Source: Rubritalea sp.
GTDB lineage: Bacteria; Verrucomicrobiota; Verrucomicrobiia; Verrucomicrobiales; Akkermansiaceae
Assembly: GCF_051252225.1 (NCBI RefSeq)
Contig: NZ_JBPOGE010000009.1
Location: forward strand, 33,709 to 97,708
DNA: 64,000 bases
Direction of reading: 5' to 3'
In this document: positions 36,322-54,230 of the stretch, piece after piece
Layout: the number at the start of each line of letters is the position of its first letter
Numbering within the stretch: the first letter of the stretch is position 1
Position numbers and translations under genes: made by a program
The notes under the pieces: model-generated
Database searches by the model: none
What the model was told of the DNA's origin: nothing
The model's input: only the letters and a program-made list of their open reading frames with translations

Positions 36322-38541
36322 TTACAGAACAATGTTCACTGCGCAGAACTTATAGCTCGGCTGGCGTGAGTACGGGTCAAAGGACGCCTGAGTGAGCTTG
36401 TTCATCTTAGCGTAGTGCATCGGCATGAAAAGTTGGCCAGGGTAGACGCTTGGAGTAACGCTGGCTGTGACTTCGACTTCGGCTCTGCGGGATTTGATGA
36501 TAATCTTGCTGTTAGGCTCGATGTTGAGTCGCTTGGCGTCGTCTGGATGGATTTCCACGTAGATCTCGCCCGGGTGTAGCATACGCAGCACTTCTGACTT
36601 CTTGGTACGGGTCTCAGTGTGCCACTGGGCTGAGCTGCCGCGCCCAGTTAGGAGCACCCAGGGGTACTCACTATCAGTGGGTTCAGCGACTGGTTTTGGC
36701 TCTTCGAAGATGAACTTTGCCTTTTGGTCTGGGTGGTAGAATTTGCCATCTGCGAATAGACGACGCTGGTTATCCTCAGCGAGACCTGACACTTGGTCGG
36801 GTTTACATGGCCACTGGATTCCGCCGTGGTCATCGACCATACGGTAGCCAGTGACTCCAGAGATATCACATGGTTGCCCTTCAGTGAGCTCGGTGAGCAT
36901 CTTAAAGGCGGCCTCGGGAGATGACCATTTTTTGAAGCGCTCCCCTACTCCCCAATAATGAGAGACGAGTTTGAAAATATTGAAGTCTGATAGTGCTTCG
37001 CCTGGTGCTTCCGCCACTTTTTTTACCAGACCGATACGACGCTCAGAGTTAATGAATACCCCGTCTTTCTCTGCCCAGCCTGCAGCGGGTAAGATGAGAT
37101 CCGCTTGCTGAGCAGTTTCGGTACTGTCGTACATGTCTTGGACGACTAGATAATCGAGCTTCTCCATCGCCTCGCGGTAGCGGTCTTGATGGATCCAAGA
37201 GTGTGAGCCATTCGTAGCAAGCACCCAGAGTCCCTTGATTTTCCCTTCGTGAATGCCTTCGACAATCTGATCGTACGCCATACCGAGCTCAGTAGGGATG
37301 TGTTCTTCTTCGACACCAATAATCTTAGAAACTTTGGCGCGATGCTCAGGGTTGGCGAAATCATGACCACCAAGTAAATTCGTGGTGTTAGAGAATAAGC
37401 GTGAGCCCATCGCATTACACTGACCGGTAATAGAGTTAGCCCCTGTTCCTGGTCTGCCGATATTTCCTGTCATCAGCGCGAGGTTGATAATGGCCTGGGC
37501 GGTACGGACACCTTCATGTGATTGGTTCACGCCCATGGTCCACCAGAAGGAAACGCGCTCACCTCGGTGAATCGTTTCTGCGAGTTTGAGTAATTGCTCA
37601 GGAGTGATGCCAGATTGTTCTTGGACCTGTGTGAGGTCGAAGCCTTTCACGTGCTCTTTGAAGCTCTCGAACTCATTGGTATGTTCGGCGATGAATTTTT
37701 CATCGATCCAGCCCTTCTCGATCAAGAGGTTCGCCAAGCCATAGAAAAAGTAGAGATCGGACTTCGGCAAGATCGGGTAATGCTGAGTTCCGGCAACGGC
37801 TGTTTCAGTCTTACGCGGGTCGATTACCACGATCTCTGGATTGTTCTTATTGCGCTCAATACGCTGCCACATGATCGGGTGCGCGATACATAAGTTAGAG
37901 CCGATAAGAATGATCACATCTGACTCTTCGAAATCTTGATAGGTGTAAGGTGGTGCGTCGAAGCCGAAGCTTTGCTTGTAGGAAACCACAGCGGTCGCCA
38001 TGCACTGACGGGTGTTGCCATCACAGTGGCGTATACCCATGCCAAACTTTGCTAAGGCGCCAAGAAATGCCATTTCCTCTGATACGATCTGACCAGTCGA
38101 TATGAATGCAACTGACTCATCGCCATACTCTTTCTGGATTTTTTTAAAGTTAGAGCAGAACGCGTTCATCGCCTCATCCCAACTAACAGGCTCTAACTGA
38201 CCACCGCGCTGTTTGCGGATCATTGGGTGTGTAGCACGGTCATTCGCCTCGAGTGGCGTGAGAGCTTCCCAGCCTTTTGGACATGCCATACCGAGGTTTA
38301 CTGGGTACTGAGTCGAAGGGGTGAGTGAGACTGCTTTCCCATCTTTTAGGTGCACATTGAGCCCACAGCCAGTAGAGCAGAACCCGCACACGACATTGGT
38401 CGTAGCGTCTGGGACAAGCTTATCTGGTACCTGCCCCAGCCCAAACTTACCTGGTGAGCGAAGAAGCTCAGCCGTCTTCGGCCCTTGCCATTGACGAATG
38501 GGTGGTACGATTTTTTCGAGTGATTTTGGGAGTGTGAGCAT
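36322..38541 (-). CDS. nasA: Assimilatory-type nitrate reductase catalytic subunit (Mo-bisPGD, one 4Fe-4S)
   Basis: CGFCSTGC...[12 protein letters not shown] (Cys ligand), [19 protein letters not shown]...WHT.TRT. No Tat signal. Confidence 0.88.
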
Positions 38542-38542
38542 A

Positions 38543-40240
38543 TCAGTGAGCTTTGTTGATTTCGCCAGGCATCTTAAGAGTGACCACCGCTTGGAAGAAG
38601 ATACTGCGCTCTAACCATTCTCCGATAAGAATAAGTGGTAGGCAGAGTAACGCTGCTGCGGGCTGAGCCAAACCGATGGCTAAACATAGTGAAGCGAGTA
38701 AGAATATGGCCCAACGCACTTTCAGTGTACTGGTAAGTGAGTTCAGCTGAATCAAGGCACTCTTTTTAGCGAAGCTCCAGTCGCTTGATTTCGCTGGTTT
38801 GAGCAATGCAAATTCAGTCAACATCTTGAAAGCTACCGACAGGGTGAAGCCGATTGCTGCGAAGGTGCTAACTGAGCTGTTAAGAATCGATTCTGCAGTC
38901 ACTAAGCCTGCGAAGCCACCGAGCAGTGTGGTTCCGAAGAAGCGAGCGCAGGTCTTAGACATGCTCCAGAAGGCGCGTTTCGTGTCCACGTAGACCATCA
39001 CTGAGCAGAATACGCTGAGAAGACCAAGGACTGCGGAGGAGACACCTGCGCCTGTGGTGATGAACGATGGGATTTCGAAAGTGAGAATTTCAGGGAGGAA
39101 TCCTTGCGCCACTGGGTACCAAAGCAAGGCAGCATAGGCTATCAGTGCCGGCATCCATGCGCTAAAGAGGAGGATTTCGCGACTGAGCCATGAGGTCTTT
39201 AATCCGAGGAAGACGCGCCATGCTCCTAGCGGGCTACCAAGGTGGAGCAAGCTGGAGACGAGTCCAACATTTCCTAACACGACGGCGAGAGCTGAGAGTG
39301 CGAGGGTTACTGTTTGGGAGGAATCAGGAGCTAGAGACTGTACGACGAAACATACGATCGATGCGCCGACAGCAACCTGCGTCAGCATTAGCATCCATAC
39401 GAGCGGCACGTGGTTGTGCGCAGGAGTAAGATCCTTGTCATCTGCAGGATGCATTGCTCCATCAAGATTACGCTTACTGCGGAAATTAGTGGTTGGAAGC
39501 GTGTAATCGGAGCGGAAAGCGCCAGCGACCATGCTGCCGCCTTGCATTGATTTTTCGCGCGACTCCGCCACATTGATCACTTGAATGGAAATAGCTCCGT
39601 TCGGGCAGGATTGTACACATGCAGGGGCTTCACCTTCAGCGAGTCGCTCGTGACACATATCGCATTTTCTAACAATGCCTAGAGCATCATCATATTTAGG
39701 GACATCGTATGGACACTTGAGTGAACAATACTGACAACCGATACATTGGTCATCGAGATGTCTCACAATACCCGTGTCTTCCATTTTCTCGTAAGCTCCC
39801 ACTGGGCAACCATTCAAGCAAGCTGGGTCAGCACAGTGGTGGCAAGCTGAGGTGACGGTCTGCTGTTCTGCCACACCGTCGACTACTCCACGAATCGATC
39901 CTACGTCACGCCAGGATTCTTTATCCTTCAGACCGTTGAGGCTATGACATGCAACAACACAGGCCTTACAGCCGGTGCATTTATCCATGTCTACTTCGAA
40001 AGCGTATTGCTCTCCTGAAGAGGGCTTTTTAATAGGAATGAGATCCTTATAGTATTTCGACTGGATCGGAGTGGTCGCATCTTCATGCTTTTGACTAAAG
40101 CGCTCGACGGCAGATAAACTACGTTGCTCGGTCAGAAGTTGATCAATCAAAGTTATCTCAGCATTAGCCTCTGATAGCTTATCGATTTTTGATGAGTCCA
40201 CCCGATCTAAAACGTGCGCACCCTTATTCATCCCAGTCAT
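38543..40240 (-). CDS. Fusion of DmsB-like 4x[4Fe-4S] ferredoxin and DmsC/NrfD-like membrane anchor
   Basis: CTGCKAC..AC, CHHC..PAC...C, CIGCQYC..KCP, CDMC..PAC..C, then ~8 TM with [11 protein letters not shown]...SWLSRE. Start at 40240 or 40231. Confidence 0.88.
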
Positions 40241-40254
40241 ACTCCTTCTTTTTA

Positions 40255-40271
40255 AGCAAAATGCGTGCCAT
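40255..40271 (-). promoter_or_regulatory. Sigma-54 -24/-12 promoter of the ferredoxin-anchor/nasA operon
   Basis: ATGGCACGCATTTTGCT (GG-N10-GC). Confidence 0.85.
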
Positions 40272-40309
40272 GCACTAATGAAACTCATGAGCCAGAGTAA
40301 TATCTAACT

Positions 40310-40324
40310 GTGAGTTTCGTTCAT
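40310..40324 (-). promoter_or_regulatory. Palindromic T-N11-A box (ATGAAC-GAA-ACTCAC)
   Basis: 10/12 match to RTGAAT-N3-ATTCAY, 38 nt upstream of the sigma-54 17-mer. Confidence 0.55.
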
Positions 40325-42069
40325 CATTTATAGAGAAGAACTAATACGAGTAGCACAAAGAGCGCGCTAGAGGTTATTTTCCAAAAGCGCTCAGGATTAC
40401 GCTCCATGAGCGGTAAATGGCGAGACTCAACATAGAGCGGATTCGGGTCTTTAAGGTCGCGCACGAGCTCGCTCATGCTGGAGTAGCGTGACTCTGCGTG
40501 CACGCTCAGAGCTCGCTTTAGTGCTCCATCTACCCACACTGGCACCATTGGTTTATATTTATAGGCCGGAATGTATTCTAGTAGGCTGAAATCCTTGTAC
40601 GTTTGTGCCTTGGTCCATTTATCTCCATAGGGGCATTTGCCGCCAGTGAGTAGATGGTAAGCAATCATCGCGATGGAGAATTGATCAGACTTCACTCCGA
40701 TAGAAGACTCGATCTCTAGTCTGTATTCGGGTGCGGAGAAGTCGATTGTTCCCAGCGCAGTTGGCTGCTCTATCCCCTGCCCTTTACCGTGAATGCTTTC
40801 AATTTTACAGGATCCGTAATCGATGACAACTGGGCGATCATCAGCGGTGAGCATGATGTTATCTAGCTTCAGATCCTGGTGAATGGTTTCCTTGCGATGG
40901 AGCGCTCGAACACCCGAGACAATCTGTTCGACAATGCGGACAATTTTTAACGTGTCGATATCTCCCTTGTGTGCGTCCATCCACTGAGCAAGCGTCTTCC
41001 CCTTCACCTCCTCCATGAGGTAGTAAAGGAAAGTGGCTTTTTGTGGGCGCTCTACGACCTTAATGAGGTTTTTATGATCCACGCGTCTGCCGATCCATTC
41101 TTCTGCGACAAATCTATCGATGTATGCAGGGTCATCTTGGAAATTCGGCGAAGGCGTCTTCATTACGAAGGCTTCCTTGGTTGAAGTGTCACGCACCCTA
41201 TAGAGTTGGCTTCTTGCGCTCTCAAAGATCACCGACTCGACTTCGAGACCATCGACACTCATACCTGGGTAGAGTAATGGAGGAAATGGGCGTTCACGGA
41301 GAAAGCGCTGAAGCTCTTCCTGATTTGCTCCCGGTACAGCACTAATCTGGACTAGCTGACAGGAGAGGTTGTCGTTACTTCCTGAAAGCAGTGCGGCATT
41401 AACAATTTCTTTGGCGGTAACATCGAGAGATTCGTGACTCTTTATGATATCGAGCATCTGGCTATCACGTAACCATTCGTGGACGCCATCGGTGCTGAGT
41501 AGGAAGAGATCGTTGAGTTCGATGCCAAATTCCTTGAAGTCCACCTTGGGATTCAGATTGAGCCCCATTGCGCGACTTAAATACGTCGTGTTTTTGGAGA
41601 TTTGAGTGCTGTGATCATTGGTGAGCTGCTCGATTTCTCCATTGCGAATACGGTAAATCCGTGTGTCGCCAATATGGAAAATGTGTGCCGTGTTAGAAGT
41701 GAAAATGATAGAGCTATGCGTAGAGAGGTAGCCCTTCTCATTTGCAAGCCCCTCACTGTGCCCCTGACTATAGAGCCATCGATTGAGTGCTGTGAGAATT
41801 CTGTGACCAGAAGTCTTCACTGACCAAGTGTCAGGCGTACTATAATAGTCGGAAAGAAAGCTCTGTACGCACATCTCCGCGGCGAGCTTGCCACCACTTG
41901 CTGCGCTCACCCCATCAGCGATGACGACTGCGATACCTTTCGTGAAGACAGAAGCGGCATCAGGCACATGAATGCCGATGCAGTCTTCGTTTTGTTTTTT
42001 TACTCCCTTGAGGGAGCATTGACCCACTGAGACAGTTAGTGCGTGCTCAGTGGGTAATGTGGTGATCAT
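40324..42069 (-). CDS. PP2C phosphatase - Ser/Thr kinase fusion with C-terminal TM
   Basis: PP2C: IADGV, HIGDTR, STDGV, GSNDN. Kinase: VMK, HQDLKLDN, IDYG, APE. Confidence 0.9.
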   Translation of the reverse strand: MITTLPTEHALTVSVGQCSLKGVKKQNEDCIGIHVPDAASVFTKGIAVVIADGVSAASGGKLAAEMCVQSFLSDYYSTPDTWSVKTSGHRILTALNRWLYSQGHSEGLANEKGYLSTHSSIIFTSNTAHIFHIGDTRIYRIRNGEIEQLTNDHSTQISKNTTYLSRAMGLNLNPKVDFKEFGIELNDLFLLSTDGVHEWLRDSQMLDIIKSHESLDVTAKEIVNAALLSGSNDNLSCQLVQISAVPGANQEELQRFLRERPFPPLLYPGMSVDGLEVESVIFESARSQLYRVRDTSTKEAFVMKTPSPNFQDDPAYIDRFVAEEWIGRRVDHKNLIKVVERPQKATFLYYLMEEVKGKTLAQWMDAHKGDIDTLKIVRIVEQIVSGVRALHRKETIHQDLKLDNIMLTADDRPVVIDYGSCKIESIHGKGQGIEQPTALGTIDFSAPEYRLEIESSIGVKSDQFSIAMIAYHLLTGGKCPYGDKWTKAQTYKDFSLLEYIPAYKYKPMVPVWVDGALKRALSVHAESRYSSMSELVRDLKDPNPLYVESRHLPLMERNPERFWKITSSALFVLLVLVLLYK

Positions 42070-42080
42070 TTAATTTTTAA

Positions 42081-43550
42081 TTAGGAAACTTCGATAAGCT
42101 CCACAGATCCATCAGGCATCACTTCAGCAGTGTGGCCAGCTGGCTCTTCAAGGAAGTATGTGGCGATGAAACCAATGGAGCTAGATGCTGCGATGATCAT
42201 GAAGAAGGTAGAAGCATCGACAAAGGAGAAAATCGTAAGAAATACAACTGCTCCTACATTGCCGTAGGCGCCAGCCATTCCAGCAATCTGACCAGTCATA
42301 CGGCGCTGTACGAGCGGCACCATGGCAAACACTGCGCCTTCGCCGGACTGCACGAAGAATGAGCAGCACATTGTGGCAAGTACGGCGAGCGGTATCGCCC
42401 ATGTGCCGTCAATATGACTCATAGTGAAGTAACCAACTGCTAGACCGACCATGAAAATCATCATGGACTTACGACGACCGAATTTATCTGAAATCAAACC
42501 ACCTGCAGGGCGGGCAATTAAATTCATGAATGCGAAGCCTGACGCGAGGAGGCCAGCTGTCACTGGTGATAGGTCAAATGTTTCCATGAAGAAGAATGGA
42601 AGCATGGAAACTACTGCGAGTTCAGAGCCGAAAGTGACGAAGTAGTTGAGATCGAGAATTGCAACTTGCTTAAATTTGTAGCGGAACATCTCAGGCACCC
42701 CACCCTCTTTGAGCATGGTTTTGTTGACGCGGTAGATTTGACTCACCTGGAAAACGAAGAGTGCTGCTAGGCCGACATAGATCATATTCGTTGTGCTCTG
42801 TGTAAGTAAGCCAACGGAAATCAATTTCCATGCGAGAACTGCAAGAGCTGCATACATAGGTATTGTCATGATGAGGAGGAAGTAGAAGTCACGGCGTGTA
42901 CTTACTTCCATTCCGCCGCTCTTTTTAGGTTTGAAGTAGGTGGCCCCCTTAGGGGTGTCACGCGCAACAATGTAGAAGAAGATCCCGTAAAGGAATGCAA
43001 TCGCTGCGGTACAATAGAGTGAATACCTCCAGCCATTTTCACCACCAAAAATGGTGGCAAGTGTTGGCAAGGTCATCGCTGCAGCGGCTGAACCGAAGTT
43101 ACCCCAACCACCATAAATACCCTCAGCAAGACCGACTTGACGTGCTGGGAACCACTCTCCCACCATGCGGATTCCGATCACAAACCCAGCTCCAACGAAG
43201 CCCATCGCGAAACGCGTAACGGCAAGTTGTTCATAAGTTTGAGCAGATGCAAACAACGCACAGAGCACACCCGATATAATGAGGAGTGTAGAGAAGGTCT
43301 TTCTAGGGCCTAATTTATCTACGAGCATACCCACAATCACACGTGAGGGAATGGTGAGAGCAACGTTTACAATGAGAAGCGCCTTCCATTGCGGTTTAGT
43401 CAGGTTGAATGCTTCTGAAATAACTGCGCCAAGGGGTGCGTGGTTAAACCAGACAACAAATGTAATGAAGAACGCAATCCATGAAACATGGAGAGTGCGT
43501 ATGCTCGGATTCTTTAGATCGAGTACGTTTAACTTATCAGTGGTGTTCAC
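42081..43550 (-). CDS. narK: NarK-family nitrate/nitrite MFS transporter
   Basis: Nitrate-signature [13 protein letters not shown]...[27 protein letters not shown]. Likely GTG start at 43550. Confidence 0.93.
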
Positions 43551-43562
43551 GTTATGGATGAA

Positions 43563-43579
43563 AGCAATACATGTGCCAA
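43563..43579 (-). promoter_or_regulatory. Sigma-54 promoter of narK
   Basis: TTGGCACATGTATTGCT. Confidence 0.85.
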
Positions 43580-43616
43580 AAAGGGTGGTGACGCAAAAAT
43601 GCCAATCATGTCTAAC

Positions 43617-43631
43617 ATGATTGGCATTCAT
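43617..43631 (-). promoter_or_regulatory. Palindromic box ATGAAT-GCC-AATCAT
   Basis: 11/12 match, 37 nt upstream of the sigma-54 17-mer. Confidence 0.7.
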
Positions 43632-43650
43632 TATTTAGCGCTATGAACAC

Positions 43651-44541
43651 TTAGGCAACTACACCCATCGATTTATCAACCAAATCTTGAATTTGTTCTT
43701 TATTGCGGAATCCCATGGTTTCCCCAGCTGAGAAAACGCGAGTCTCCCCTTTGATGTGTGAGCGCTGCTCGAGGAATGCAAGGAGGTGCTCACGGTAAGT
43801 GAAGAACTTCTGATCATTAAAGATTTCCTGTCGGTTACGCGGACGTGGGAAATCAATTTCGAGAATTTCTCCTAACCCAGCCTTAGGGCCATTTGACATC
43901 ATTACACAGCGATCCGCCATAAATACGGCTTCATCAACATCGTGTGTAACAATCATCGCCGTAAGTTTTTCGCGTTCAAGAATATCAATAATGACATCCT
44001 GTAGCTCCATACGAGTCAATGAATCTAGTCGACCAAAAGGCTCATCAAGAAGCAGCACTTTAGGCTGAAGAGCAATCGCTCTCGCTATACCAACACGCTG
44101 CTGCATGCCGCCAGATAGCTCCTTTGGGTATTTCTTCATGGAGTCAGCTAGGCCAACGACAGAAAGTGAATGCTCGACAATCTGCTTCTGAGTAGCCTTA
44201 TTAACGTGTGGATAGACGTTTTTCACTCCAAGCATCACATTAGCGTAGGCTGTCAACCATGGCATCAAGCATGGTGCCTGGAATACCACAGAGCGATCAG
44301 GACCCGGGCCGTCGATCTCCTTATTCCCTACAATGATACCCCCGCCAGAAATCTCATTGAGCCCTGCGAGCATTGTGAGAACCGTGGATTTACCACAACC
44401 AGAGTGACCAATGAGTGAGATGAATTCCCCCTCCTTGATATTTAGGTTGAAGTCTTCAACTACGCGGAAAGGATCACCGTACGGATTCGGGTATTCTTTA
44501 ACGAGATTTGAAATCTCTACAAATTTTAAATTCTCAGACAT
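43651..44541 (-). CDS. nrtD: Nitrate/nitrite-type ABC transporter ATPase (NrtD-like)
   Basis: [30 protein letters not shown]. Confidence 0.88.
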
Positions 44542-44542
44542 A

Positions 44543-45445
44543 TTAGGCTACGTTGTTAGAGTTCTTACTGGAAACAGGGTTTTGCTTGAATGTTGGAGCG
44601 AGCACTGTTGGTGAGAAATTCTTAGGTGTCACCTTAGGCATTGGTATGATATCGGCACTGAGCTTCTTACTCTCTTTATTGAGCCCCATCATGTAGTTGG
44701 TGATCTCAGACTTGAGGCGCATAAATTCTGGATGATCATTCAGTGTGTGGCGGTCACGTGGACGTGCCATGTTCACCTTGAAGTCGTCAGAGAGAGTTGC
44801 CGCTGGCCCCATAGTGAGAGGGACGATGCGATCAGCCATCAGAACGGCTTCGTCCACATCGTTAGTGATCATCACTACTGTACGTTTGTCTTTCTCCCAG
44901 ATATTGAGGATTTGGTCCTGTAGCTCTGATCGAGTGAGGGCGTCTAGTGCTGAGAGCGGCTCGTCAAGCAGCAGAACTTCCGGGTCCAGAGAGAGTGTGC
45001 GTGCAAGCGATGCTCGCTGACGCATGCCGCCTGACAGCTCTTGTGGTTTCTTATCAAATGCGTGATCGAGTTTCACCATTTTCACATAGTGTCGTGCGCG
45101 CTCTTCAAGATCACTCTTGGAGAGTCGAGGGTCCACAGCCCTAATAGCAAGCTTCACATTCTCTACCACCGTCAACCAAGGGAGGAGTGAGTAGTTCTGA
45201 AACATGAGTCCGAGGTCTGGGCCCGGCTCCTTAATGCTCTCCCCTTTGAATCGAACTTCGCCTGTTGAAGGTTTTTCGAGGCCAGAGAGAAGACTCATTA
45301 GTGTACTCTTCCCTGCTCCAGAGAATCCGATGACTGCGACAAACTCATTTTCTTCAACCTTGAGGTTAAGATCCTTGAGGATATCCACCCTGCTGGAGGG
45401 CGGTCCGTAGCTTACTGAAGCGTTATCTATTTCTAAAAATGCCAT
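44543..45445 (-). CDS. nrtC: Nitrate/nitrite-type ABC transporter ATPase (NrtC-like, short form)
   Basis: [32 protein letters not shown]. Confidence 0.88.
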
Positions 45446-45465
45446 AATCTTGGATATTTCTATGA

Positions 45466-47085
45466 TTAAACGCTTACTGCACCGTCGAAGGTAACCATGC
45501 GCTGGAAGACGATCATGATGCGATCAAGAATGAGTCCGATGATGCCCACGAGGAATACGACAACCATCATCTTAGCGAGTGAGTCGGAAGCGCCGTTGTT
45601 GAACTGATCCCACACAAACTTACCAATACCTTCTGATGAGGAGAGGAGTTCCGCAGCGATAAGAACCATCCAGCCGACACCTAGTGAGATACGAAGACCT
45701 GCAAAAATAAGTGGCAGCGCAGACGGAATGACGATCTTGAAAAGACGAGCGAAGAAGCCGAGCTTGAGTACGCGTGCTACGTTCATGTGATCTTTATCGA
45801 TAGACGCTACTCCGAGGGCTGTATTTGCCAAGGTCGCCCAAAGTGAACAGAGAGCCACAGTCACTGCTGAAGCAATGAAGGCTGGATTGATCTTATACTC
45901 ACCGATTAATGGGAGATCCCATAAGAATTCCATAATTGGGTTGTTGTCAGGATCAGGGATGAGACCTGAGACAATGATGAGTGCGATAGGCAACCATACG
46001 ATTGGTGAAACCGGCTTGAAGATGGCGATGAACGGAGTCATGGCAGCCATGAAGGTAGAGTTGAGGCCGCAGAGGATTCCGACTGGAACCGCAATCGCTG
46101 TGCCGATAATAAATCCAGTAAAGACACAGAAAATAGAACGCTTAACCTGGTACCAAATGGTTGCTGGCTTAGCATACTCAGAGTCCTCCATCTTACCTAA
46201 GCGGGATTCAGCTTTAGCAATAGAACGAGCCTTATCATAAGCCGCCTTACCTGTGAGTGTGAGAAACTCAGCATTGGATGCTGTAATCTTCCCTGTAGCG
46301 GACTCCACCTGAATCGCTTTATTGCGATTACTAAGAAGTTCAATTTGCTTCTTAAGGAACTGTTCCTCTTCTGCAGCGAATGTTTGAGTAATGAGGGCGT
46401 CAGCTACTTGTGGGGATTTCATCTCGCGAATCTTATCAATTTCTTTCTTAAGTACAGAGAGCTTCTCTTTATTGGCCTCGCTCTCAGATTCAGCAACCTT
46501 CACCTCACCTTGGTAAGCTGTATAAGCCGCTTGATTACCCGCTGGCAGTGAGTCAGCCTTCACAATGAGTGCCTCCTTTTTAGCGTCTGCTATCTCTTTG
46601 TATTCAACTTTCTTGGCTTTATATTCTGCATCAAGCGGCGCAATGAGCCCTTTAGTCTTTTCGCTCATAGCAGACTTAGCCTGTGTCACCGCTTCGTTCG
46701 CTAGCTTTACACGCTCCTCTACGCCTACAAGTTGCTCTTTCGACTCCTCAAGCATCTGCTCGCGCGCATCACCTGTAAGCTCGTAAGCTTTCATCTTTAG
46801 ATTCTCTCGTTCAGCTTGCTTATCGATGGCGTTGTACCCTTTCCAGGTCTGGGCCGGGTTAGGAAGCGTGCCAGACTTCGTTTGGATCGTTCCTGAGGTG
46901 ACATGCCAGAGGAAGAGGAAGGCTAGCACACCAGCAATGGGGACAAATATCCATTGACCAATCTTCTGGAGCTGGATTTTCGGTTCTTCACCATAACAAA
47001 GCCTCACCACTGGAGCCAGGAATGTGAGGCCACTGAGATCGATGGCTTTTAAGAGTGCGTATTGTAGTTTCTTTAGGAATTTCAT
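45466..47085 (-). CDS. nrtB: Nitrate-type ABC permease with large coiled-coil insertion
   Basis: FKPVSP..WLP, NTA.GV..D..NVARVL EAA loop, [15 protein letters not shown]. Likely start MKFL at 47085 (track start 47154). Confidence 0.88.
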
Positions 47086-47206
47086 AGCGTAAGCAGAAAT
47101 AGTGTTGGCATTGACTAAGCAGGCACTAGACCACCACTTATTAGTTCTGCTCATAACTGAGGTGAATCACTAACATTCACCCCAGAATTCAGCTGGTTCT
47201 ATATGC

Positions 47207-47239
47207 AAAAAAAAGGCCACCTTTTAAAAAGGTGGCCTT
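47207..47239 (-). terminator. Intrinsic terminator between nrtA and nrtB
   Basis: On the - strand AAGGCCACCTTTTT-AAAAGGTGGCCTTTTTTTT. Confidence 0.85.
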
Positions 47240-47270
47240 AATTACAATACTACAGGTATTACTATGAAAA

Positions 47271-48641
47271 TTATGCTTCAGGATCTTTGTTACCGATCTT
47301 GTGGCTATTGAGATATTTGATCGGCTCTTTACCGTCATATTCAACACCATCAATGAAGTCTGTTGTAGGCACTTTGAAGCCATCTGTATCCCAAGGGATA
47401 TCCGCCTTATCGATATTACCTTCTTCTACGAGCATCTTAGCTGCTTCGAGGTAAACTTCAGGAGCATAAACGCTTTTTGCAGTTTCTAGGTACCAATCTT
47501 TAGACTTAGGCTCTGAAATCTGTCCCCAACGACGCATCTGAGTGAGAAACCAGATACCATCAGAGTACCATGGGTAGGTAGCGTTGTTTTTGTAGAATAC
47601 GTTGAAATCTGGCATCTCACGCTTGTCAGTCTTCTGGAAGAAGAAATAGCCAGTCATGGAGTTCTTAATGACATCGTAGTCAGCACCTACATAATTCGGA
47701 CGTGAAAGGATACGTGCAGCTTCTTCGCGGTTTACAAGCTTGCCACTTTCATCGGTCTCATCGAGCCATTTACCAGCACGAATGAGAGCCTTAGTTACAG
47801 CGATGTTAGTTTTTGGATTTTCGTCAGCCCATGCCTTAGATACACCAAATACTTTCTCTGGGTTGTTTTTCCAGATGTCGTAGTTAGTGATTACTGGCAC
47901 ACCGATACCTTTAGCCACAGCTTGCTGATTCCATGGTTCACCCACGCAGTAGCCTTGGATATTACCAGACTCTAGAGTCGCCGGCATCATTGGCGGAGGT
48001 GTTACGGATAGCTCAACTTGAGCGTCGGTACGACCACCTACATCTGACTGCGTATACATACCTGGATGTATATCTGCAGCTGCCAGCCAGTAACGTAGTT
48101 CGTAGTTGTGAGTGGATGTTGGGAAAACCATACCCATTTGAAGCTTCTCACCTTCATCCAACTTCTCAATTACAACTGGCTTCAGAGAATCTGCTGTAAT
48201 AGGGTGTGGAGGGGTGTCTGAATCGAGCTTAGGGTCATTTTCCTGCATCTGCTTCCAGATGTTATTGGATACTGTAATAGCATTACCATTGAGATCCATT
48301 GTGTAGGACGTGACGATGTGCGCCTTAGTACCAAAACCAATTGTCGCTGCAATCGGCTGACCAGAGAGCATATGCGCACCATCTAAATCACCAGAGATTA
48401 CATTATCTAAGAGAGTTTTCCAGTTTGGCTGAGCGACTACATCGACCTGAAGGCCTTCATCATCGAAAAATCCTTTTTCCTTCGCGATTACGAGAGGAGC
48501 GCAATCAGTAAGCTTGATAAAACCAAACTTAAGAGAGTCTTTTTCTACATCGAGCTGCCCAGCGTAAAGAGCAGGTGCTGCCATAACGCTAGCAATAGTG
48601 GCGAGCGTACTAACTTGTTTAATTAACGGGTTCGTTTTCAT
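47271..48641 (-). CDS. nrtA: CmpA/NrtA-family ABC substrate-binding protein
   Basis: [52 protein letters not shown]. Likely start MKTN at 48641. Confidence 0.93.
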
Positions 48642-48663
48642 AATTTGTGAACACCAGCAATCC

Positions 48664-48680
48664 AGCACTACCTGTGCCAA
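48664..48680 (-). promoter_or_regulatory. Sigma-54 promoter of nrtA
   Basis: TTGGCACAGGTAGTGCT. Confidence 0.8.
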
Positions 48681-48717
48681 CCCTCGACACCATAAGGCTT
48701 CGCTATGCATCTAAAAA

Positions 48718-48821: not shown

Positions 48822-49760
48822 ATGAACTTACCTGAAATACGTCAGCTTAAGATTTTTATAGCTCTAGAAGAAACGCGTTCATTTACTGCAGCGGCCAATA
48901 AGAACTTCATCACGCAATCTGCAGTATCCCACTCTATTAAATCACTAGAGAAGCAGCTAGACTGCAGCCTCATAGAGCGCATGGGTAAACGTATAACCCT
49001 TACCCCATACGGTGAGGTGTTTCTCCATCACGCTAAACGCGTCATTGCTGAACTGGAGTCATCTCTGACTAAAATTGAAACTCTCAAGCACTGGGGTTAC
49101 TCTTCTATTAGGGTAGGTGCTTCAGACACAATCTGCCAGTACATCCTACCTAGTGTTCTTAACACTTTTGCTAGGATGCATCCCAAATGCGAGATTACTG
49201 TTGATCTTGGTGACACATTAGCGATGCAGAAAAAACTGGCGCATGGGCAGCTTGATCTCGCTATTGGTATCCATCTAGCTCCTAGCGACAACAATTTCAT
49301 TTTTACTCCACTCACAGAAGACACGCTTTGCTTTGTAACCTCACCTGATCACGATTGGGTTCAGCGCCAGACTAATAGAGGCGGTTCACTCACAGATGTT
49401 AGACTCATCGCTTACGGTGCTGAAAGTGAGACGATGCGCCTCATTACTAAGCACTTTAGCGAGACCGTCGTGAAATACCGTCACCCGCTTTCCCTGGGGA
49501 ACATGGAAGCTATTAAAGAGATGACAAAAATTGGTCTCGGAGTTGGCATCATCCCCCCTTGGGTCGCCAAGAAGGAATTTGAAAAAGGCGAGTTAGTAGC
49601 CCACACTATATCCTCCCCTCCACCACGACGCAACTGGGGTGTGTTTTCAAATAGCGGAAAAACCTTCTCTCTTCCTGAAGAGGATTTCATTACGATCTGC
49701 CGAGAAGAAATGGAAAAGGCGATCCATACAGGGAGAAAACTAGAAGAAGTGGGAGCGTAA
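48822..49760 (+). CDS. LysR-family transcriptional regulator
   Basis: SFTAAA....TQSAVS..IK.LEKQL...L.ER....TLTP.GE HTH plus substrate-binding domain. Confidence 0.95.
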   Translation: MNLPEIRQLKIFIALEETRSFTAAANKNFITQSAVSHSIKSLEKQLDCSLIERMGKRITLTPYGEVFLHHAKRVIAELESSLTKIETLKHWGYSSIRVGASDTICQYILPSVLNTFARMHPKCEITVDLGDTLAMQKKLAHGQLDLAIGIHLAPSDNNFIFTPLTEDTLCFVTSPDHDWVQRQTNRGGSLTDVRLIAYGAESETMRLITKHFSETVVKYRHPLSLGNMEAIKEMTKIGLGVGIIPPWVAKKEFEKGELVAHTISSPPPRRNWGVFSNSGKTFSLPEEDFITICREEMEKAIHTGRKLEEVGA

Positions 49761-49825
49761 GCTCAGATCGTTAACCAGCTTTTCTAATAGCAGCGCTTTT
49801 CACCTTAGCTTCAATAGATCCTTTT

Positions 49826-49855
49826 AGCTCCATCACACTCTGGTGGAGCTTTTTT
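49826..49855 (+). terminator. Intrinsic terminator after lysR
   Basis: AGCTCCAtCA-CACTC-TGgTGGAGCT-TTTTT. Confidence 0.75.
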
Positions 49856-49892
49856 GTGCCATGCAGTGAGCCCTGAAGTAAACTAAGCATAA

Positions 49893-49907
49893 GTGAATCA
49901 AATTAAT
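49893..49907 (+). promoter_or_regulatory. Palindromic box GTGAAT-CAA-ATTAAT
   Basis: 11/12 match to RTGAAT-N3-ATTCAY, 38 nt upstream of the sigma-54 17-mer. Confidence 0.65.
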
Positions 49908-49945
49908 GTATTGGATTAATTGTACTGGTTGGCACACCTAACATC

Positions 49946-49962
49946 TTGGCACATTCGTTGCT
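49946..49962 (+). promoter_or_regulatory. Sigma-54 promoter of the porin gene
   Basis: TTGGCACATTCGTTGCT. Confidence 0.85.
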
Positions 49963-49976
49963 TGTTGTATGACGTT

Positions 49977-51215
49977 ATGAATAAACGTACATTATTGTCA
50001 TTATTAGCACTCACACAGACAGCAGTAATCGCTGGTGAAGTTCAAGAGATCCCCGTTGTAGAAAAACCGAAAGAAGAGTGGTTTAAGTTCTCCGTCGATG
50101 CTCGTGCTCGTCTTGAGCAGCGCAAGATACAAGGTCTAGATAACTCTTGGGCTGGCACATTCCGTATTCGCCCAGGTTTCTTCGTTGGTAAATCTGAAGG
50201 TTTTGGTGCCTTCGTCGAAACTGAAAGCACTCTTGCTTTCATCGATGATTACGCAAGCGCTCAACCACAACTCAACCCTAATACACCAGGAAACACACGC
50301 ATTGATGATCCTGAGAACAACGAGCTCAATCAGCTTTACGCTCAGTACATCGGCTACGGCGCACTTCTTCGTGGAGGTCGCCAGCGTATCATCTATGATA
50401 ACGCAGCATTTATCGGTAATGTTGGATGGCGTCAGAACGAGCAAACGATGGATGGCGCATTGCTCGACTATAAGAAAGATGCATTCACATTTAAGTATAG
50501 CTACGTAAACCGTGTGAACCGCATATTCGGTGCAGATGCTCTAGGTGCTGCAAGAGCCCTCAAAGGTGCTGCACACTTCGTCAACGGGTCCTACAAGTTT
50601 GGTGAGAATAAGTTTACCGCTTACACCTACCTCATGGATTTTGATGAGTTGTCGTTCTCGCGTGCTAGCAACAACACATATGGTGGCTTCTTCGACTTTG
50701 CTCTTGGCGAAGGATCACTACATACAGAATTTGCCTACCAGACTGAAGCGGGTAACAACGAAGCTGATTACGGTGACTACTACGCTCACGTTTTCTACGG
50801 AGGTAAAGCGAGCATCCTCGACTACAACGTTGGTGTTGAATACCTAGGTGATGAGTTTGTGACTCCCCTCGCTACTGTGCACAAATTTAACGGATTTGCT
50901 GACAGATTTGCTGGCAATCGCCTAGGTTTGGCTCCAGCTGCCGCATGGAATGGCCTTAGTGATGTTTACGCAAGTGCTGGGACAAAAATCGCCGGCGGTG
51001 TGGTACTTACAGGATTCGTACACGCCTTCTGGGATCAGGATTTTGATCAGTTCTACGGATTCGAATTTGATGCTACTGCAGTGAAAAAGTTCAACGATAA
51101 CTTCAAGGCTGTTGCTAAGTACGCCTACTATTTTGGCAATAACGATGATAGTGATTACGTTGCTTTCGAAGACAACATCTCCCAGTTCTCAGTTGAACTG
51201 AACTACACCTTCTAG
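49977..51215 (+). CDS. Outer-membrane beta-barrel (alginate-export/AlgE-like porin)
   Basis: Signal peptide (start MNKR), NELNQLY, RGGRQ....DN..FIGNVGWRQNEQT.DG, C-terminal ELNYTF. Confidence 0.85.
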   Translation: MNKRTLLSLLALTQTAVIAGEVQEIPVVEKPKEEWFKFSVDARARLEQRKIQGLDNSWAGTFRIRPGFFVGKSEGFGAFVETESTLAFIDDYASAQPQLNPNTPGNTRIDDPENNELNQLYAQYIGYGALLRGGRQRIIYDNAAFIGNVGWRQNEQTMDGALLDYKKDAFTFKYSYVNRVNRIFGADALGAARALKGAAHFVNGSYKFGENKFTAYTYLMDFDELSFSRASNNTYGGFFDFALGEGSLHTEFAYQTEAGNNEADYGDYYAHVFYGGKASILDYNVGVEYLGDEFVTPLATVHKFNGFADRFAGNRLGLAPAAAWNGLSDVYASAGTKIAGGVVLTGFVHAFWDQDFDQFYGFEFDATAVKKFNDNFKAVAKYAYYFGNNDDSDYVAFEDNISQFSVELNYTF

Positions 51216-51249
51216 AGGATTCACATAGTTTAGTTATTCAAATCAAATT

Positions 51250-51289
51250 CACCCAATCGATGAATCTCATTCATTGATTGGGTGTTTTT
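51250..51289 (+). terminator. Intrinsic terminator after the porin gene, containing a perfect ATGAAT-CTC-ATTCAT box
   Basis: CACCCAATCGATGAAT-CTC-ATTCATTGATTGGGTG-TTTTT (16-bp stem, one G-U pair). Confidence 0.75.
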
Positions 51290-51306
51290 GTGGCACGCCA
51301 CATGCT
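51290..51306 (+). promoter_or_regulatory. Sigma-54 promoter of nirBD
   Basis: GTGGCACGCCACATGCT. Confidence 0.75.
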
Positions 51307-51340
51307 CAATAAGAATCAACAACTACCCAATTATCCAAAT

Positions 51341-53872
51341 ATGAAAGAAAGAGTAATAGTCGTAGGTAACGGCATGGTCGGATACAAATTCTGTGAACGT
51401 CTCGTAGCTAAAGACGTCGACAAAAAATTCCAAATAGTCACATTCTGCGAAGAGCCACGTCCAGCATATGATCGTGTGCATCTTTCTGAATACTTTTCCG
51501 GTAAAACTGCGGAAGATCTTAGTATGACCCACTTTGATTGGTATGAAGAGAATGGCGTTGAACTTCATATTGGTGAGAAAGTCACCCAGATCGACAAAGC
51601 GGCAAAGCGCGTTATCACATCCTCCGGTAAGGTTGTTGAATACGACAAGCTCATTATGGCTACTGGCTCCTCTCCTTTTGTTCCACCCGTGCCTGGTGTA
51701 GAGAAAAAAGGTGTGTTTGTTTACCGCACGATAGAAGATCTTGATGCAATGCAAGAGTATGCAGCTCATGCTAAATCTTGTGCTGTCATCGGTGGAGGTT
51801 TGCTAGGCCTCGAAGCGGCGAAAGCAGCTCAAGACCTTGGACTCCGTACACATGTAGTTGAGTTTGCACCACGCCTTATGCCAAGACAGCTCGATGAAGC
51901 TGCTGGTATCCTCCTAAAAGACGTTATCGAAGAGCGTGGCATCAAGGTTCACCTCTCTAAATCCACTTCAAATATTGCTGGCGAAGATTCTGTCAAAGGT
52001 ATGGAATTCGCTGACGGCAGCGAACTAAAGGTCGATATGATCATTGTTTCTGCAGGAATTCGTCCACGTGACGAACTGGCAAGTGAAGCTGGAATCACCG
52101 TCGGTCCTCGTGGTGGTATCGAAGTCGATAGTTACCTACTTACTAGCGACCCTAATATTTTCGCAATTGGTGAATGCGCGCTCTATGAAGGCATGATTTA
52201 TGGTCTTGTTGCTCCTGGCTACCAGATGGCTGATGCAGTGAGTGATCTTCTACTAGGCAAAGAAGCTACCTTCACCGGTGCTGATATGTCCACCAAGCTC
52301 AAACTTATTGGTACTGATGTTGCTAGCTTTGGTGCTATCGAAGTACCAGAAGGCTCTGGAGCTCGTGAGATTGTTATTAATGACACGCACAACAAACTCT
52401 TCAAGAAGCTCGTTGTCTCCGCAGACGGCAAAAAACTCCTAGGTGGTATTCTGGTAGGTGATGCAAGTGCCTATGGCTCACTTCACCAAATGTACCTCAA
52501 TGATATGGAGATTAAAGGTGACCCTATCCAACTCATTCTCCCATCTTCCGATGGCGAACCAGTAGGTGTTGGGGTTGGTGATCTTCCTGATTCAGCACAG
52601 ATTTGCTCCTGTGAAGCAGTCACTAAAGGTGAGATCTGTAGTGCTATCGAAAACGGATGTTCTTCTGTAGGTGAACTTAAATCCTGTACTAAAGCAGGAA
52701 CTGGTTGCGGTGGTTGTGTGCCACTTATGACTGATCTCTTTAAAGCAAAAATGAGAGAGTCTGGCGTGGAAGTCAGTGATCGTATTTGTGAGCACTTCGA
52801 TCATTCCCGTAAAGAAATCTATCAAATCGTCCGCGCTACCGGCATCCAGAATTTCAACGAACTCCTAGCCAAGCACGGGAAAGGAATGGGTTGTGAAATT
52901 TGTAAGCCTGTTGCCGCATCCGTCTTCGCATCTTGCTGGAACGTTCCTATCCTTGATAAGGCTCCGCTTCAGGACACCAATGACGCATTTCTCGCAAACA
53001 TTCAGCAGGATGGTACATATTCCGTCATTCCTCGTATCCCTGGTGGTGAAATCACCCCGGACAGTCTCATTGTAATCGGTGAAGTCGCTAAAAAGTATAA
53101 CCTCTACATGAAGCTCACTGGTGGTCAGCGTATTGACCTTCTCGGCGCCCGCGCTCATCAGCTTCCAGCTATCTGGAAAGACCTTATCGATGCGGGCTTC
53201 GAATCCGGTCATGCCTACGGCAAAGCTCTTCGTACGGTAAAATCCTGTGTAGGATCTTCTTGGTGTCGCTTCGGCGTTCAGGATTCCACCACTCTCGCTA
53301 TCGACATCGAAAAGCGCTACCGCGGTATTCGCTCACCTCACAAACTTAAATCAGCAGTATCTGGTTGTGTTCGCGAGTGCGCTGAAGCTCAGTCCAAGGA
53401 TTTCGGTATCATTGCTACGGAAAAAGGCTGGAACCTCTACGTTTGTGGTAATGGCGGTATCGTGCCACGTCACGCTGACCTCTTCGCAACAGACCTCGAC
53501 CGCGAAACTCTCATTAAGTACATCGATCGTTTCCTCATGTACTACATCAAGACCGCTGACAGACTCGAGCGCACATCCACATGGATGACTAAGCTCGAAG
53601 GTGGTCTCGAGCACCTTCAGGATGTAGTAATTAAAGACTCACTTGGTATCTGTGAGGAACTAGAAGCGCAAATGAATCACCTCGTCGACACTTACGAATG
53701 TGAGTGGAAAAACGCAATCAATGACCCAGAGAAAATGAAGCGCTTCAAGCACTTCCAGAACTCTGAGGACGAGGACGAGACTGTAGAATTTGTCGACCTT
53801 CGTGGACAAATCTGCCCTGCACGCCTCAATGAATCAGATGAAAAAGAATCGGGTGAACTCGCTAATGCATAA
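51341..53872 (+). CDS. nirB: NADH-dependent nitrite reductase large subunit
   Basis: GNGMVG, GGGLLGLEAA, two BFD Cys clusters, VKSCVG..WCRFG, SGC.RECAE sirohaem motifs. Likely start MKER at 51341. Confidence 0.97.
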   Translation: MKERVIVVGNGMVGYKFCERLVAKDVDKKFQIVTFCEEPRPAYDRVHLSEYFSGKTAEDLSMTHFDWYEENGVELHIGEKVTQIDKAAKRVITSSGKVVEYDKLIMATGSSPFVPPVPGVEKKGVFVYRTIEDLDAMQEYAAHAKSCAVIGGGLLGLEAAKAAQDLGLRTHVVEFAPRLMPRQLDEAAGILLKDVIEERGIKVHLSKSTSNIAGEDSVKGMEFADGSELKVDMIIVSAGIRPRDELASEAGITVGPRGGIEVDSYLLTSDPNIFAIGECALYEGMIYGLVAPGYQMADAVSDLLLGKEATFTGADMSTKLKLIGTDVASFGAIEVPEGSGAREIVINDTHNKLFKKLVVSADGKKLLGGILVGDASAYGSLHQMYLNDMEIKGDPIQLILPSSDGEPVGVGVGDLPDSAQICSCEAVTKGEICSAIENGCSSVGELKSCTKAGTGCGGCVPLMTDLFKAKMRESGVEVSDRICEHFDHSRKEIYQIVRATGIQNFNELLAKHGKGMGCEICKPVAASVFASCWNVPILDKAPLQDTNDAFLANIQQDGTYSVIPRIPGGEITPDSLIVIGEVAKKYNLYMKLTGGQRIDLLGARAHQLPAIWKDLIDAGFESGHAYGKALRTVKSCVGSSWCRFGVQDSTTLAIDIEKRYRGIRSPHKLKSAVSGCVRECAEAQSKDFGIIATEKGWNLYVCGNGGIVPRHADLFATDLDRETLIKYIDRFLMYYIKTADRLERTSTWMTKLEGGLEHLQDVVIKDSLGICEELEAQMNHLVDTYECEWKNAINDPEKMKRFKHFQNSEDEDETVEFVDLRGQICPARLNESDEKESGELANA

Positions 53873-53894
53873 CATTTAACACATAGAAATTATT

Positions 53895-54230
53895 ATGATT
53901 ACAGAATCAACACAGATCAATGTAGGGGCCGTTTCTAACTTCCCACAAGATCTCGGCAGCTGTGTAAAAATTAACGGAAAACAAATCGCAGTCTTCAATC
54001 TACCTACTGAACAAAAGTGGTATGCCGTTCAGAACTTTAATCCACAAAACCAACGCATGGTGCTTTCACGTGGTCTCACTGGTGATGCGGATGGCGAGCC
54101 AATCGTCATCTGTCCACTTCACAAGCACCGTTATTCATTAGTTACTGGTGAGTGCCTTACTGATAGCGCATATAGCCTCGAAACTTTCCCTATCAAGGAA
54201 GTCGACGGCGAGCTTCTCATAGAAGCCTAG
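53895..54230 (+). CDS. nirD: Nitrite reductase small subunit (Rieske-like)
   Basis: QIAVF, LSRGL.GD, ICPLHK..YSL.TG.C. Confidence 0.93.
   Translation: MITESTQINVGAVSNFPQDLGSCVKINGKQIAVFNLPTEQKWYAVQNFNPQNQRMVLSRGLTGDADGEPIVICPLHKHRYSLVTGECLTDSAYSLETFPIKEVDGELLIEA

Follow-up and report, generated by a model that had tools for sequence, protein, structure and literature searches.

Two adjacent genes in a marine Rubritalea sp. genome (assembly GCF_051252225.1, contig NZ_JBPOGE010000009.1) encode a molybdenum enzyme of the assimilatory nitrate reductase (Nas) type and a protein in which a DmsB-like iron-sulfur (FeS) domain is fused to a DmsC-type membrane anchor. Both lie in the 64,000-nucleotide stretch that was analyzed, hereafter the window. 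Our preferred reading, to which we give a probability of about 0.6, is that the pair constitutes a membrane-bound, cytoplasm-facing assimilatory nitrate reductase that is fed by menaquinol through the fusion protein. That the two proteins form a complex at the membrane, that the complex reduces nitrate, and that electrons enter it from quinol and flow in this direction, we infer from the lines of evidence set out below. Assimilatory nitrate reductases are treated in reviews and phylogenies as soluble enzymes that receive electrons from NAD(P)H, ferredoxin or flavodoxin, and to our knowledge supply from the quinone pool is not listed in textbooks. According to Wells et al. 2020, no member of the clade comprising Nas, Nap, AioA and cytoplasmic formate dehydrogenase (Fdh) has four-cluster or anchor subunits (PMC7331816), a statement that the Rubritalea gene pair contradicts. 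A literature search found no description of a DmsB-DmsC fusion/Nas module, and PMC4013037 covers other Nas architectures.

The catalytic subunit matches the Pfam families PF04879 (Molybdop_Fe4S4), PF00384 (Molybdopterin) and PF01568 (Molydop_binding), and Pfam detected no Fer2_BFD domain in it, nor anything beyond the Molydop_binding domain. The Nas proteins of Klebsiella, Paracoccus, Ralstonia and Pararhizobium are 866-913 amino acids (aa) long with Cys-rich tails, whereas the Rubritalea protein has 739 aa and no tail. Its best solved relative is the monomeric NapA of Desulfovibrio desulfuricans (E 3.5e-111), and the sequence RQCMATAV around the predicted molybdenum ligand aligns with RLCMASAV of NapA, which is the Cys-Met arrangement of nitrate reductases and not Sec/Cys-His. 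The longer motif DGNTRQCM is present in all 19 family members examined, and the Cys-Met motif is also found in the Nas and Nap references. Identity to named Nas, NapA and FdhF proteins encoded on plasmids and chromids is 28-35%, the nearest being a sister enzyme on plasmid p1 of Cetobacterium somerae (L085:5980-10697) at 44%. Among curated NCBIfam models, the scores were 515 bits for Fdh-alpha (cut-off 666), 455 for NasC NF047855 (cut-off 1100) and 455 for NasA_Halo NF041323 (cut-off 1000), and the 355 bits obtained with the NapA model also lie under its cut-off. Since the cut-offs of the NasC and NasA models are missed, the catalytic subunit represents a separate clade and is not an equivalog of the curated proteins.

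A tree of 30 sequences (LG+G4, rooted on the genome's own YdeP paralogue), built without cyanobacterial NarB and Bacillus subtilis NasC, recovered the catalytic family as monophyletic with a Shimodaira-Hasegawa-like approximate likelihood ratio test (SH-aLRT) value of 99. Its sisters are the Cetobacterium type (SH-aLRT 100) and haloarchaeal NasA (94), and the family falls on the Nas/Nap side of the split from FdhF (97). Together, the motif and this split led us to drop a reading of the protein as formate dehydrogenase. The family is further set apart by its N-terminus: the Cys motif for the N-terminal [4Fe-4S] cluster, FS0, begins between residues 45 and 67 in all 19 members, but between residues 8 and 19 in FdhF, the Cetobacterium type and canonical Nas. 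The extension of ~45 residues that precedes it contains conserved G20, T23, G34-L35-G36 and P39. The sequence data thus support assignment of the catalytic subunit as a probable cytoplasmic nitrate reductase of a distinct Nas clade that carries molybdenum-bis(pyranopterin guanine dinucleotide) (Mo-bisPGD).

The partner gene lies immediately upstream, and the junction between the two reads TGA-T-ATG (CAC TGA T ATG CTC), a gap of 1 nt. Its longest frame runs from 38543 to 40288 on the minus strand and encodes 581 aa (P0002, whose numbering is used here). However, homologues begin at the internal ATG at 40240, AAGGAG precedes that codon, and a perfect sigma-54 box sits inside the longer frame; therefore, we take 40240 as the start and dropped the ATG at 40288. 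In the N-terminal part, Fer4_11 spans residues 145-236, and 16 Cys residues form four groups, all invariant in the fusion family. The DmsB model TIGR02951 scores 131 bits over residues 94-239, under its cut-off of 214, so the fusion is not an equivalog of curated DmsB. In the C-terminal part, PF04976 (DmsC) scores 65 bits against a cut-off of 22.3, eight transmembrane (TM) helices are predicted, and the AlphaFold2 (AF2) model of the membrane domain has a predicted local distance difference test (pLDDT) score above 90. Foldseek matched the FeS part to FdnH, PsrB and ArrB and the anchor to ActC and PsrC. The closest homologues of P0002 come from Rubritalea (Verrucomicrobiota), and it is encoded by the only DmsC-domain gene in the genome. 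Database names for its homologues are either dimethyl sulfoxide (DMSO) reductase anchor or formate dehydrogenase iron-sulfur subunit; the gene is routinely mis-annotated, and metagenome surveys would score it as such.

A first-pass annotation of this stretch, made by a model from the letters alone, had described a 739-aa Nas/Nap-type catalytic subunit with neither a twin-arginine translocation (Tat) signal nor a BFD-like tail, coupled across a 1-nt gap to a protein that starts at 40240 and combines four Cys clusters with a DmsC/NrfD-like domain of about eight TM helices. All of these features were borne out by the domain searches, the Cys-Met alignment, the tree, the motif scan and the start-site evidence.

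Escherichia coli DmsB and DmsC taken together are colinear with the fusion, and the DmsC sequence MLH65LGSP...SNE87I corresponds to LLH349LGSP...SRE371I. Both H349 and E371 are invariant across the four phyla in which the fusion family was found, and DmsC His65, the counterpart of H349, is a quinol-site residue. In PMC6303296, which cites Geijer and Weiner 2004, DmsC Glu87 is given as important for menaquinol binding. The genome contains MenA and no futalosine marker was found in it, indicating that the quinone is menaquinone.

No twin-arginine motif or hydrophobic signal was found in any of 19 catalytic subunits or 19 fusions, whereas both NapA controls were positive. Given that no helix precedes the FeS domain, this domain must stay on the side of the membrane where it is made. 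In the 19 fusions, which represent four phyla, loops facing the FeS side contain a mean of 11.4 Lys or Arg residues per protein, with a further 3.7 in the linker, compared to 0.57 in the loops on the far side. In the same alignment columns, E. coli DmsC shows the opposite bias (2 versus 5). By the positive-inside rule, this distribution places the FeS domain in the cytoplasm and the anchor in an orientation inverted relative to E. coli DmsC, and the quinol-site loop is then predicted to lie on the cytoplasmic face, beside the FeS domain. A periplasmic orientation was dropped on the lack of an export signal and the inward charge bias.

Structure prediction of the whole catalytic subunit with fusion residues 20-278, using a 19-row alignment for each, gave an interface score (ipSAE) of 0.87, compared to 0.00 for the best of three controls; 58 of 80 solved complexes pass the mark set for this score, as do 2 of 110 mismatched pairs. 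Because similar complexes (FdnGH, PsrAB) have been solved, the score shows likeness and is no proof of binding. At least 80% of contacts are shared between runs, and the pLDDT of the partner is 82 or higher. In the model, the contacts of least error place catalytic residues 85-91, around the FS0 ligand Cys87, on fusion residues 92-103, which cover the first CxxCxxCxxxC group. The two proteins are thus predicted to dock cluster to cluster, FS0 on the first cluster of the FeS wire, and the family-specific N-terminal extensions of both contact each other and the FeS domain.

The inferences of the first-pass annotation can be judged against these results. Its cytoplasm-facing placement agrees with the missing export signals and the charge bias, and its view of the enzyme as a quinol-fed hybrid of assimilatory and respiratory designs gains support from the conserved His and Glu of the quinol site, although activity, donor and membrane association are deduced from sequence. 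Of the checks that it had suggested, the topology prediction and the phylogeny (here without NarB) came out in favor of its proposal, and the complex model is compatible with it. It had also surmised that similar gene pairs may exist in genomes of the Planctomycetes-Verrucomicrobia-Chlamydiae (PVC) group; they are present there, but this range proved too narrow, as pairs also occur in Myxococcota and Poribacteria.

Relatives were detected in at least 584 species genomes in one pattern scan, and locus counts given here refer to the best 80. These come from Verrucomicrobiota, Planctomycetota, Myxococcota (Sorangium) and Poribacteria. In ~70 of the 80, a Nas orthologue (56-83% identical) lies directly downstream of the fusion gene, often with a four-base ATGA overlap, and most of the loci that lack an adjacent Nas orthologue end at a contig edge. 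Adjacency on this scale excludes chance. Genes for NrtABCD, a major facilitator superfamily (MFS) transporter, nirBD or nirA are close by in most loci. Among 201 high-quality genomes sampled from the phylum, 17 have the fusion, and the same 17 are the only ones with a family-type Nas scoring above 1000 bits; as relatives are not independent, this co-occurrence is a pattern and not a statistic. The Nas match includes the N-terminal extension in 16 of the 17, and 15 other genomes of the sample have only lower-scoring Nas- or Fdh-type proteins without it. The Cetobacterium sister enzyme has neither extension nor anchor. Its gene is followed by those for a 135-aa 4Fe-4S dicluster protein, a flavin adenine dinucleotide (FAD)-dependent oxidoreductase and a TDT-family transporter, neighbors that look like a soluble donor module replacing the membrane anchor. 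Given this difference, donor modules seem to be swapped between clades.

Variant forms were also seen among the relatives. In one Poribacteria genome, the Nas orthologue (L075:11737-14535) has 932 aa, of which the C-terminal ~200 form an extension without any Pfam match, and in one verrucomicrobial locus a second molybdopterin oxidoreductase of 669 aa that lacks FS0 is encoded between the fusion and nas (L045:11918-13927). Some representatives of the Nas family (P0126, P0146, P0195) are much longer or late-starting; the Nas part of a 929-aa protein starts only at residue 237, and a 656-aa protein has its Nas N-terminus at residue 397. These could be forms fused with the partner or read-through gene calls.

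In Rubritalea, the pair sits in a probably N-regulated nitrate-assimilation cluster with genes for NrtABCD, an MFS transporter, a LysR regulator and NirBD. The genome, which is 97% complete, encodes three MopB-type proteins, namely the catalytic subunit, a YdeP-family enzyme and NuoG, and therefore has neither Nar nor Nap; by sequence, the catalytic subunit is its only candidate nitrate reductase. Apart from NirB, no NAD/FAD module was found among the Pfam-scanned open reading frames (ORFs) at 25-56 kb of the window, no whole-genome search for a NasB/NasC-type diaphorase having been made, and within that scope the first-pass statement that NirB is the only diaphorase holds.

We propose that menaquinol would be oxidized at a DmsC-type site where the eight-helix anchor faces the cytoplasm, and that electrons would pass through the four [4Fe-4S] clusters of the DmsB-like domain to FS0 and on to the Mo-bisPGD of the catalytic subunit. 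Nitrate imported by NrtABCD or the MFS transporter would be reduced to nitrite by this subunit and then to ammonium by NirBD. If protons from the quinol site are released to the cytoplasm, the enzyme itself would be electroneutral, and the benefit would be that NADH is spent through complex I instead of directly on nitrate. In thermodynamic terms, menaquinol is more than adequate as a donor for the nitrate/nitrite couple.

Comparison with known systems shows where this design would fit. With the classical Nas enzymes (Klebsiella NasA, Paracoccus NasC, B. subtilis NasC, cyanobacterial NarB and haloarchaeal NasA), the Rubritalea enzyme shares the features of a cytoplasmic Mo-bisPGD protein with an N-terminal FS0, a Cys ligand followed by Met, no Tat signal, an assimilation context and the same side of the tree. 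However, it is only 30-35% identical to them, scores under the curated cut-offs, has the ~45-aa N-terminal extension and lacks a BFD/2Fe-2S tail. Where classical Nas proteins take electrons from an NAD(P)H diaphorase, ferredoxin or flavodoxin, the conserved and translationally coupled partner here is the four-cluster/anchor fusion. E. coli DmsABC offers the same wiring, with a Mo subunit, a four-cluster subunit and an eight-helix, haem-free quinol anchor containing His65 and Glu87. It differs in that the Rubritalea B and C parts form one polypeptide without a Tat signal and in a predicted inverted orientation, and in that the catalytic subunit belongs to the Nas/Nap and not the DmsA clade, with an assimilatory role.

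A precedent for an anchor of the NrfD/PsrC/DmsC fold that holds Mo and FeS subunits on its cytoplasmic side, as the predicted topology has it for Rubritalea, is the sulfite:quinone oxidoreductase SoeABC of Allochromatium vinosum and Ruegeria pomeroyi, a cytoplasm-acting Mo/FeS/NrfD-PsrC-like anchor complex (PMC6335251). There, however, electrons run from substrate to quinone, whereas the Rubritalea pair would run from quinol to substrate. In addition, Soe has its B and C subunits as two proteins rather than one, its substrate and its catalytic clade are different, and the likeness is one of description and not of sequence comparison with SoeB or SoeC. In function, the pair would resemble NarGHI, which oxidizes quinol in the membrane and reduces nitrate in the cytoplasm through an FeS subunit. 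However, it lacks the haem-b NarI anchor and has no NarI or NarG family match, NarH reaches 50 bits against a cut-off of 524, and the Mo ligand is Cys and not the Asp of NarG, from which the catalytic clade also differs. By analogy, the module would amount to DmsABC inverted in the membrane and fitted with a Nas-type catalytic subunit, or to SoeABC in reverse, and it would deliver the outcome of NarGHI with unrelated parts.

Several points weigh against a menaquinol-fed assimilatory enzyme. The catalytic subunit reaches no curated NCBIfam cut-off, and the predicted inward topology draws solely on the positive-inside rule. The FeS domain of the single-chain AlphaFold model, which was built without clusters, is of low confidence, and the complex score may reflect likeness to the solved FdnGH, PsrAB or ArrAB rather than the pair itself. 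Our literature search found no experiment on any family member. Electron donation by NirB/NirD is conceivable, as in Paracoccus, where NasB/NasG fill this role. Finally, in 3 of the 80 loci (Luteolibacter sp. AS25 and metagenome-assembled genomes of Haloferula and an Akkermansiaceae member), the fusion follows nirA and nas is located elsewhere in the genome, and the generalization that the fusion is always beside nas was dropped. The unlinked Nas orthologue in these genomes is 57% identical and has the extension; in Luteolibacter sp. AS25 its gene adjoins that for glutamate synthase (GOGAT), and no fusion-like gene was found in its 1.5-kb flanks. The nirA-fusion loci suggest that the role of the fusion may not be restricted to Nas.

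In ~35 of the 80 loci, a gene for a NirA-type siroheme nitrite/sulfite reductase also precedes the fusion by no more than ~200 bases, in the order nirA-fusion-nas, and gene order suggests that the wire may also serve NirA and thus nitrite reduction. One further reading joins this possibility to a different proton route: the inverted anchor would be electrogenic, passing quinol protons through itself to the periplasm, and in nirA-fusion-nas genomes the wire would also feed siroheme NirA. An electrogenic proton path has been proposed for QrcD, in the opposite sense. We regard this joint reading as doubtful. If its electrogenic part were true, nitrate assimilation would conserve energy instead of costing reductant, and if the wire feeds NirA too, the quinone pool would supply all eight electrons of the path from nitrate to ammonium.

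Three other explanations compete with that of a quinol-fed assimilatory enzyme. The fusion could only tether or scaffold Nas at the membrane, for example beside the nitrate importer, while a soluble donor such as NirB/NirD or ferredoxin feeds the FeS clusters, and the DmsC domain would then either not oxidize quinol or pass surplus electrons to the quinone pool. The genes for NirBD, which has an NAD/FAD module of its own, are indeed 11 kb away, and the ferredoxin-type NirA directly upstream of the fusion in many related loci means that ferredoxin-like donors must exist in those cells. However, a mere tether would hardly account for the invariance of the quinol-site His, Glu and surrounding loop over four phyla, no fold in the model is better conserved than that of the membrane domain, and the small soluble FeS protein and FAD enzyme of the anchorless sister clade suggest that the anchor replaces a donor module. 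We therefore consider a tether unlikely.

That the complex is mainly dissimilatory, a cytoplasm-facing quinol:nitrate oxidoreductase for respiration or redox balancing to which assimilation is incidental, seems improbable to us. In functional terms the architecture of quinol, FeS wire and cytoplasmic Mo enzyme matches Nar, no other nitrate reductase is encoded in the genome, and NarGHI itself serves assimilation in mycobacteria. Nevertheless, the pair is embedded among genes for uptake and nitrite-to-ammonium reduction with sigma-54 boxes and a LysR regulator, elsewhere it adjoins nirA, nirBD or GOGAT, and a quinol site on the cytoplasmic side would build no redox loop. Least probable is a substrate other than nitrate, whether the enzyme were a cytoplasm-facing formate:quinone oxidoreductase or a reductase of chlorate, selenate or another oxyanion. 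Fdh-alpha does give the best NCBIfam score, and that score, like the others, stays under its curated cut-off, but the ligand position has Cys-Met rather than Sec/Cys-His, the tree separates the protein from FdhF, and the context is one of nitrate assimilation. Assimilatory nitrate reduction with menaquinol supplied through the fusion thus remains the reading that we prefer.

The positions of the features discussed are collected in Table 1.

Table 1. Features of the gene pair, its surroundings in the window and three related loci
Feature	Position	Strand	Basis
Catalytic subunit (P0001), 739 aa	36322..38541	(-)	Pfam domains, NapA match, tree, no Tat motif
Codon of Cys180, predicted Mo ligand, followed by Met181 (RQCMATAV)	38002..38004	(-)	Aligned with C140-M141 of NapA 2NAP
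FS0 [4Fe-4S] motif (C52, C55, C59, C87)	38281..38388	(-)	Cys invariant in 19 orthologues; predicted contact of residues 83-92 with first cluster of partner
N-terminal extension of catalytic subunit, ~residues 14-49	38395..38502	(-)	Family-specific; exported relatives have a Tat signal there
Predicted electron-transfer/anchor subunit, DmsB-DmsC fusion, 565 aa from ATG 40240	38543..40240	(-)	Pfam, NCBIfam, colinear with DmsB+DmsC
DmsC-type eight-helix membrane domain, P0002 residues 293-565	38594..39412	(-)	PF04976, AF2, Foldseek, loop charge
Predicted quinol-site loop HLGSP...SWLSRE, H349-E371 of P0002	39176..39244	(-)	Aligned with DmsC H65...E87
Four-cluster [4Fe-4S] domain, P0002 residues 94-240, 16 Cys	39569..40009	(-)	TIGR02951, invariant Cys, Foldseek
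N-terminal extension of fusion (LIDxLLxEQ...ERFSQxHE...YYxDLIP)	40010..40150	(-)	Conserved across phyla; predicted contact with catalytic extension
Sigma-54 box TGGCAC-N5-TTGCT just upstream of fusion gene	40255..40270	(-)	Perfect match
PP2C phosphatase/Ser-Thr kinase fusion with C-terminal hydrophobic tail	40324..42069	(-)	Pfam
Nitrate uptake: MFS transporter, two ATP-binding cassette (ABC) ATPases, permease, NMT1_2 binding protein	42081..48710	(-)	Pfam
Divergent LysR regulator, porin-like protein, NirB, NirD (NAD(P)H nitrite reductase)	48822..54230	(+)	Pfam
nirA-fusion loci of relatives	L064:8239-11545, L067:7537-11578, L071:8087-11551		

Four perfect sigma-54 boxes are found in the window, three of them within the nitrate cluster, and two boxes with one mismatch precede nrtA and nirB. 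Sigma-54-type boxes at 43563-43578, 48664-48679, 49947-49962 and 51291-51306 fall within the 5' ends of the called MFS, NrtA, porin and NirB ORFs, which makes it likely that translation of these genes begins downstream of the starts of the longest frames. The PP2C/kinase protein, of 581 aa, is encoded between the genes for the MFS transporter and the DmsB-DmsC fusion. An orthologue (47-78% identical) is encoded next to the MFS transporter in 11 or more related loci, an arrangement suggestive of post-translational control over nitrate uptake. Just downstream of nas, a 399-aa ORF (35076-36275, minus strand) has a signal-like N-terminus and no Pfam match; none of the 80 related loci has an equivalent ORF, and a link to the module is therefore improbable. 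A scan downstream of nas for a terminator or sigma-70 promoter found nothing. The only other true Mo-bisPGD enzyme of the genome is the YdeP/FdhF-family oxidoreductase (764 aa; TIGR01701, 895 bits), encoded ~1 kb past the end of the window (G000:C9:98689-100983, equivalent to L082:1138-3432).

The module is widespread, with relatives in at least 584 species genomes and with Verrucomicrobiota, Planctomycetota, Myxococcota and Poribacteria represented among the best 80 loci. If nitrate is reduced with quinol in these organisms, the reductant cost and the energy yield of nitrate assimilation would differ from current models in abundant marine and soil bacteria.

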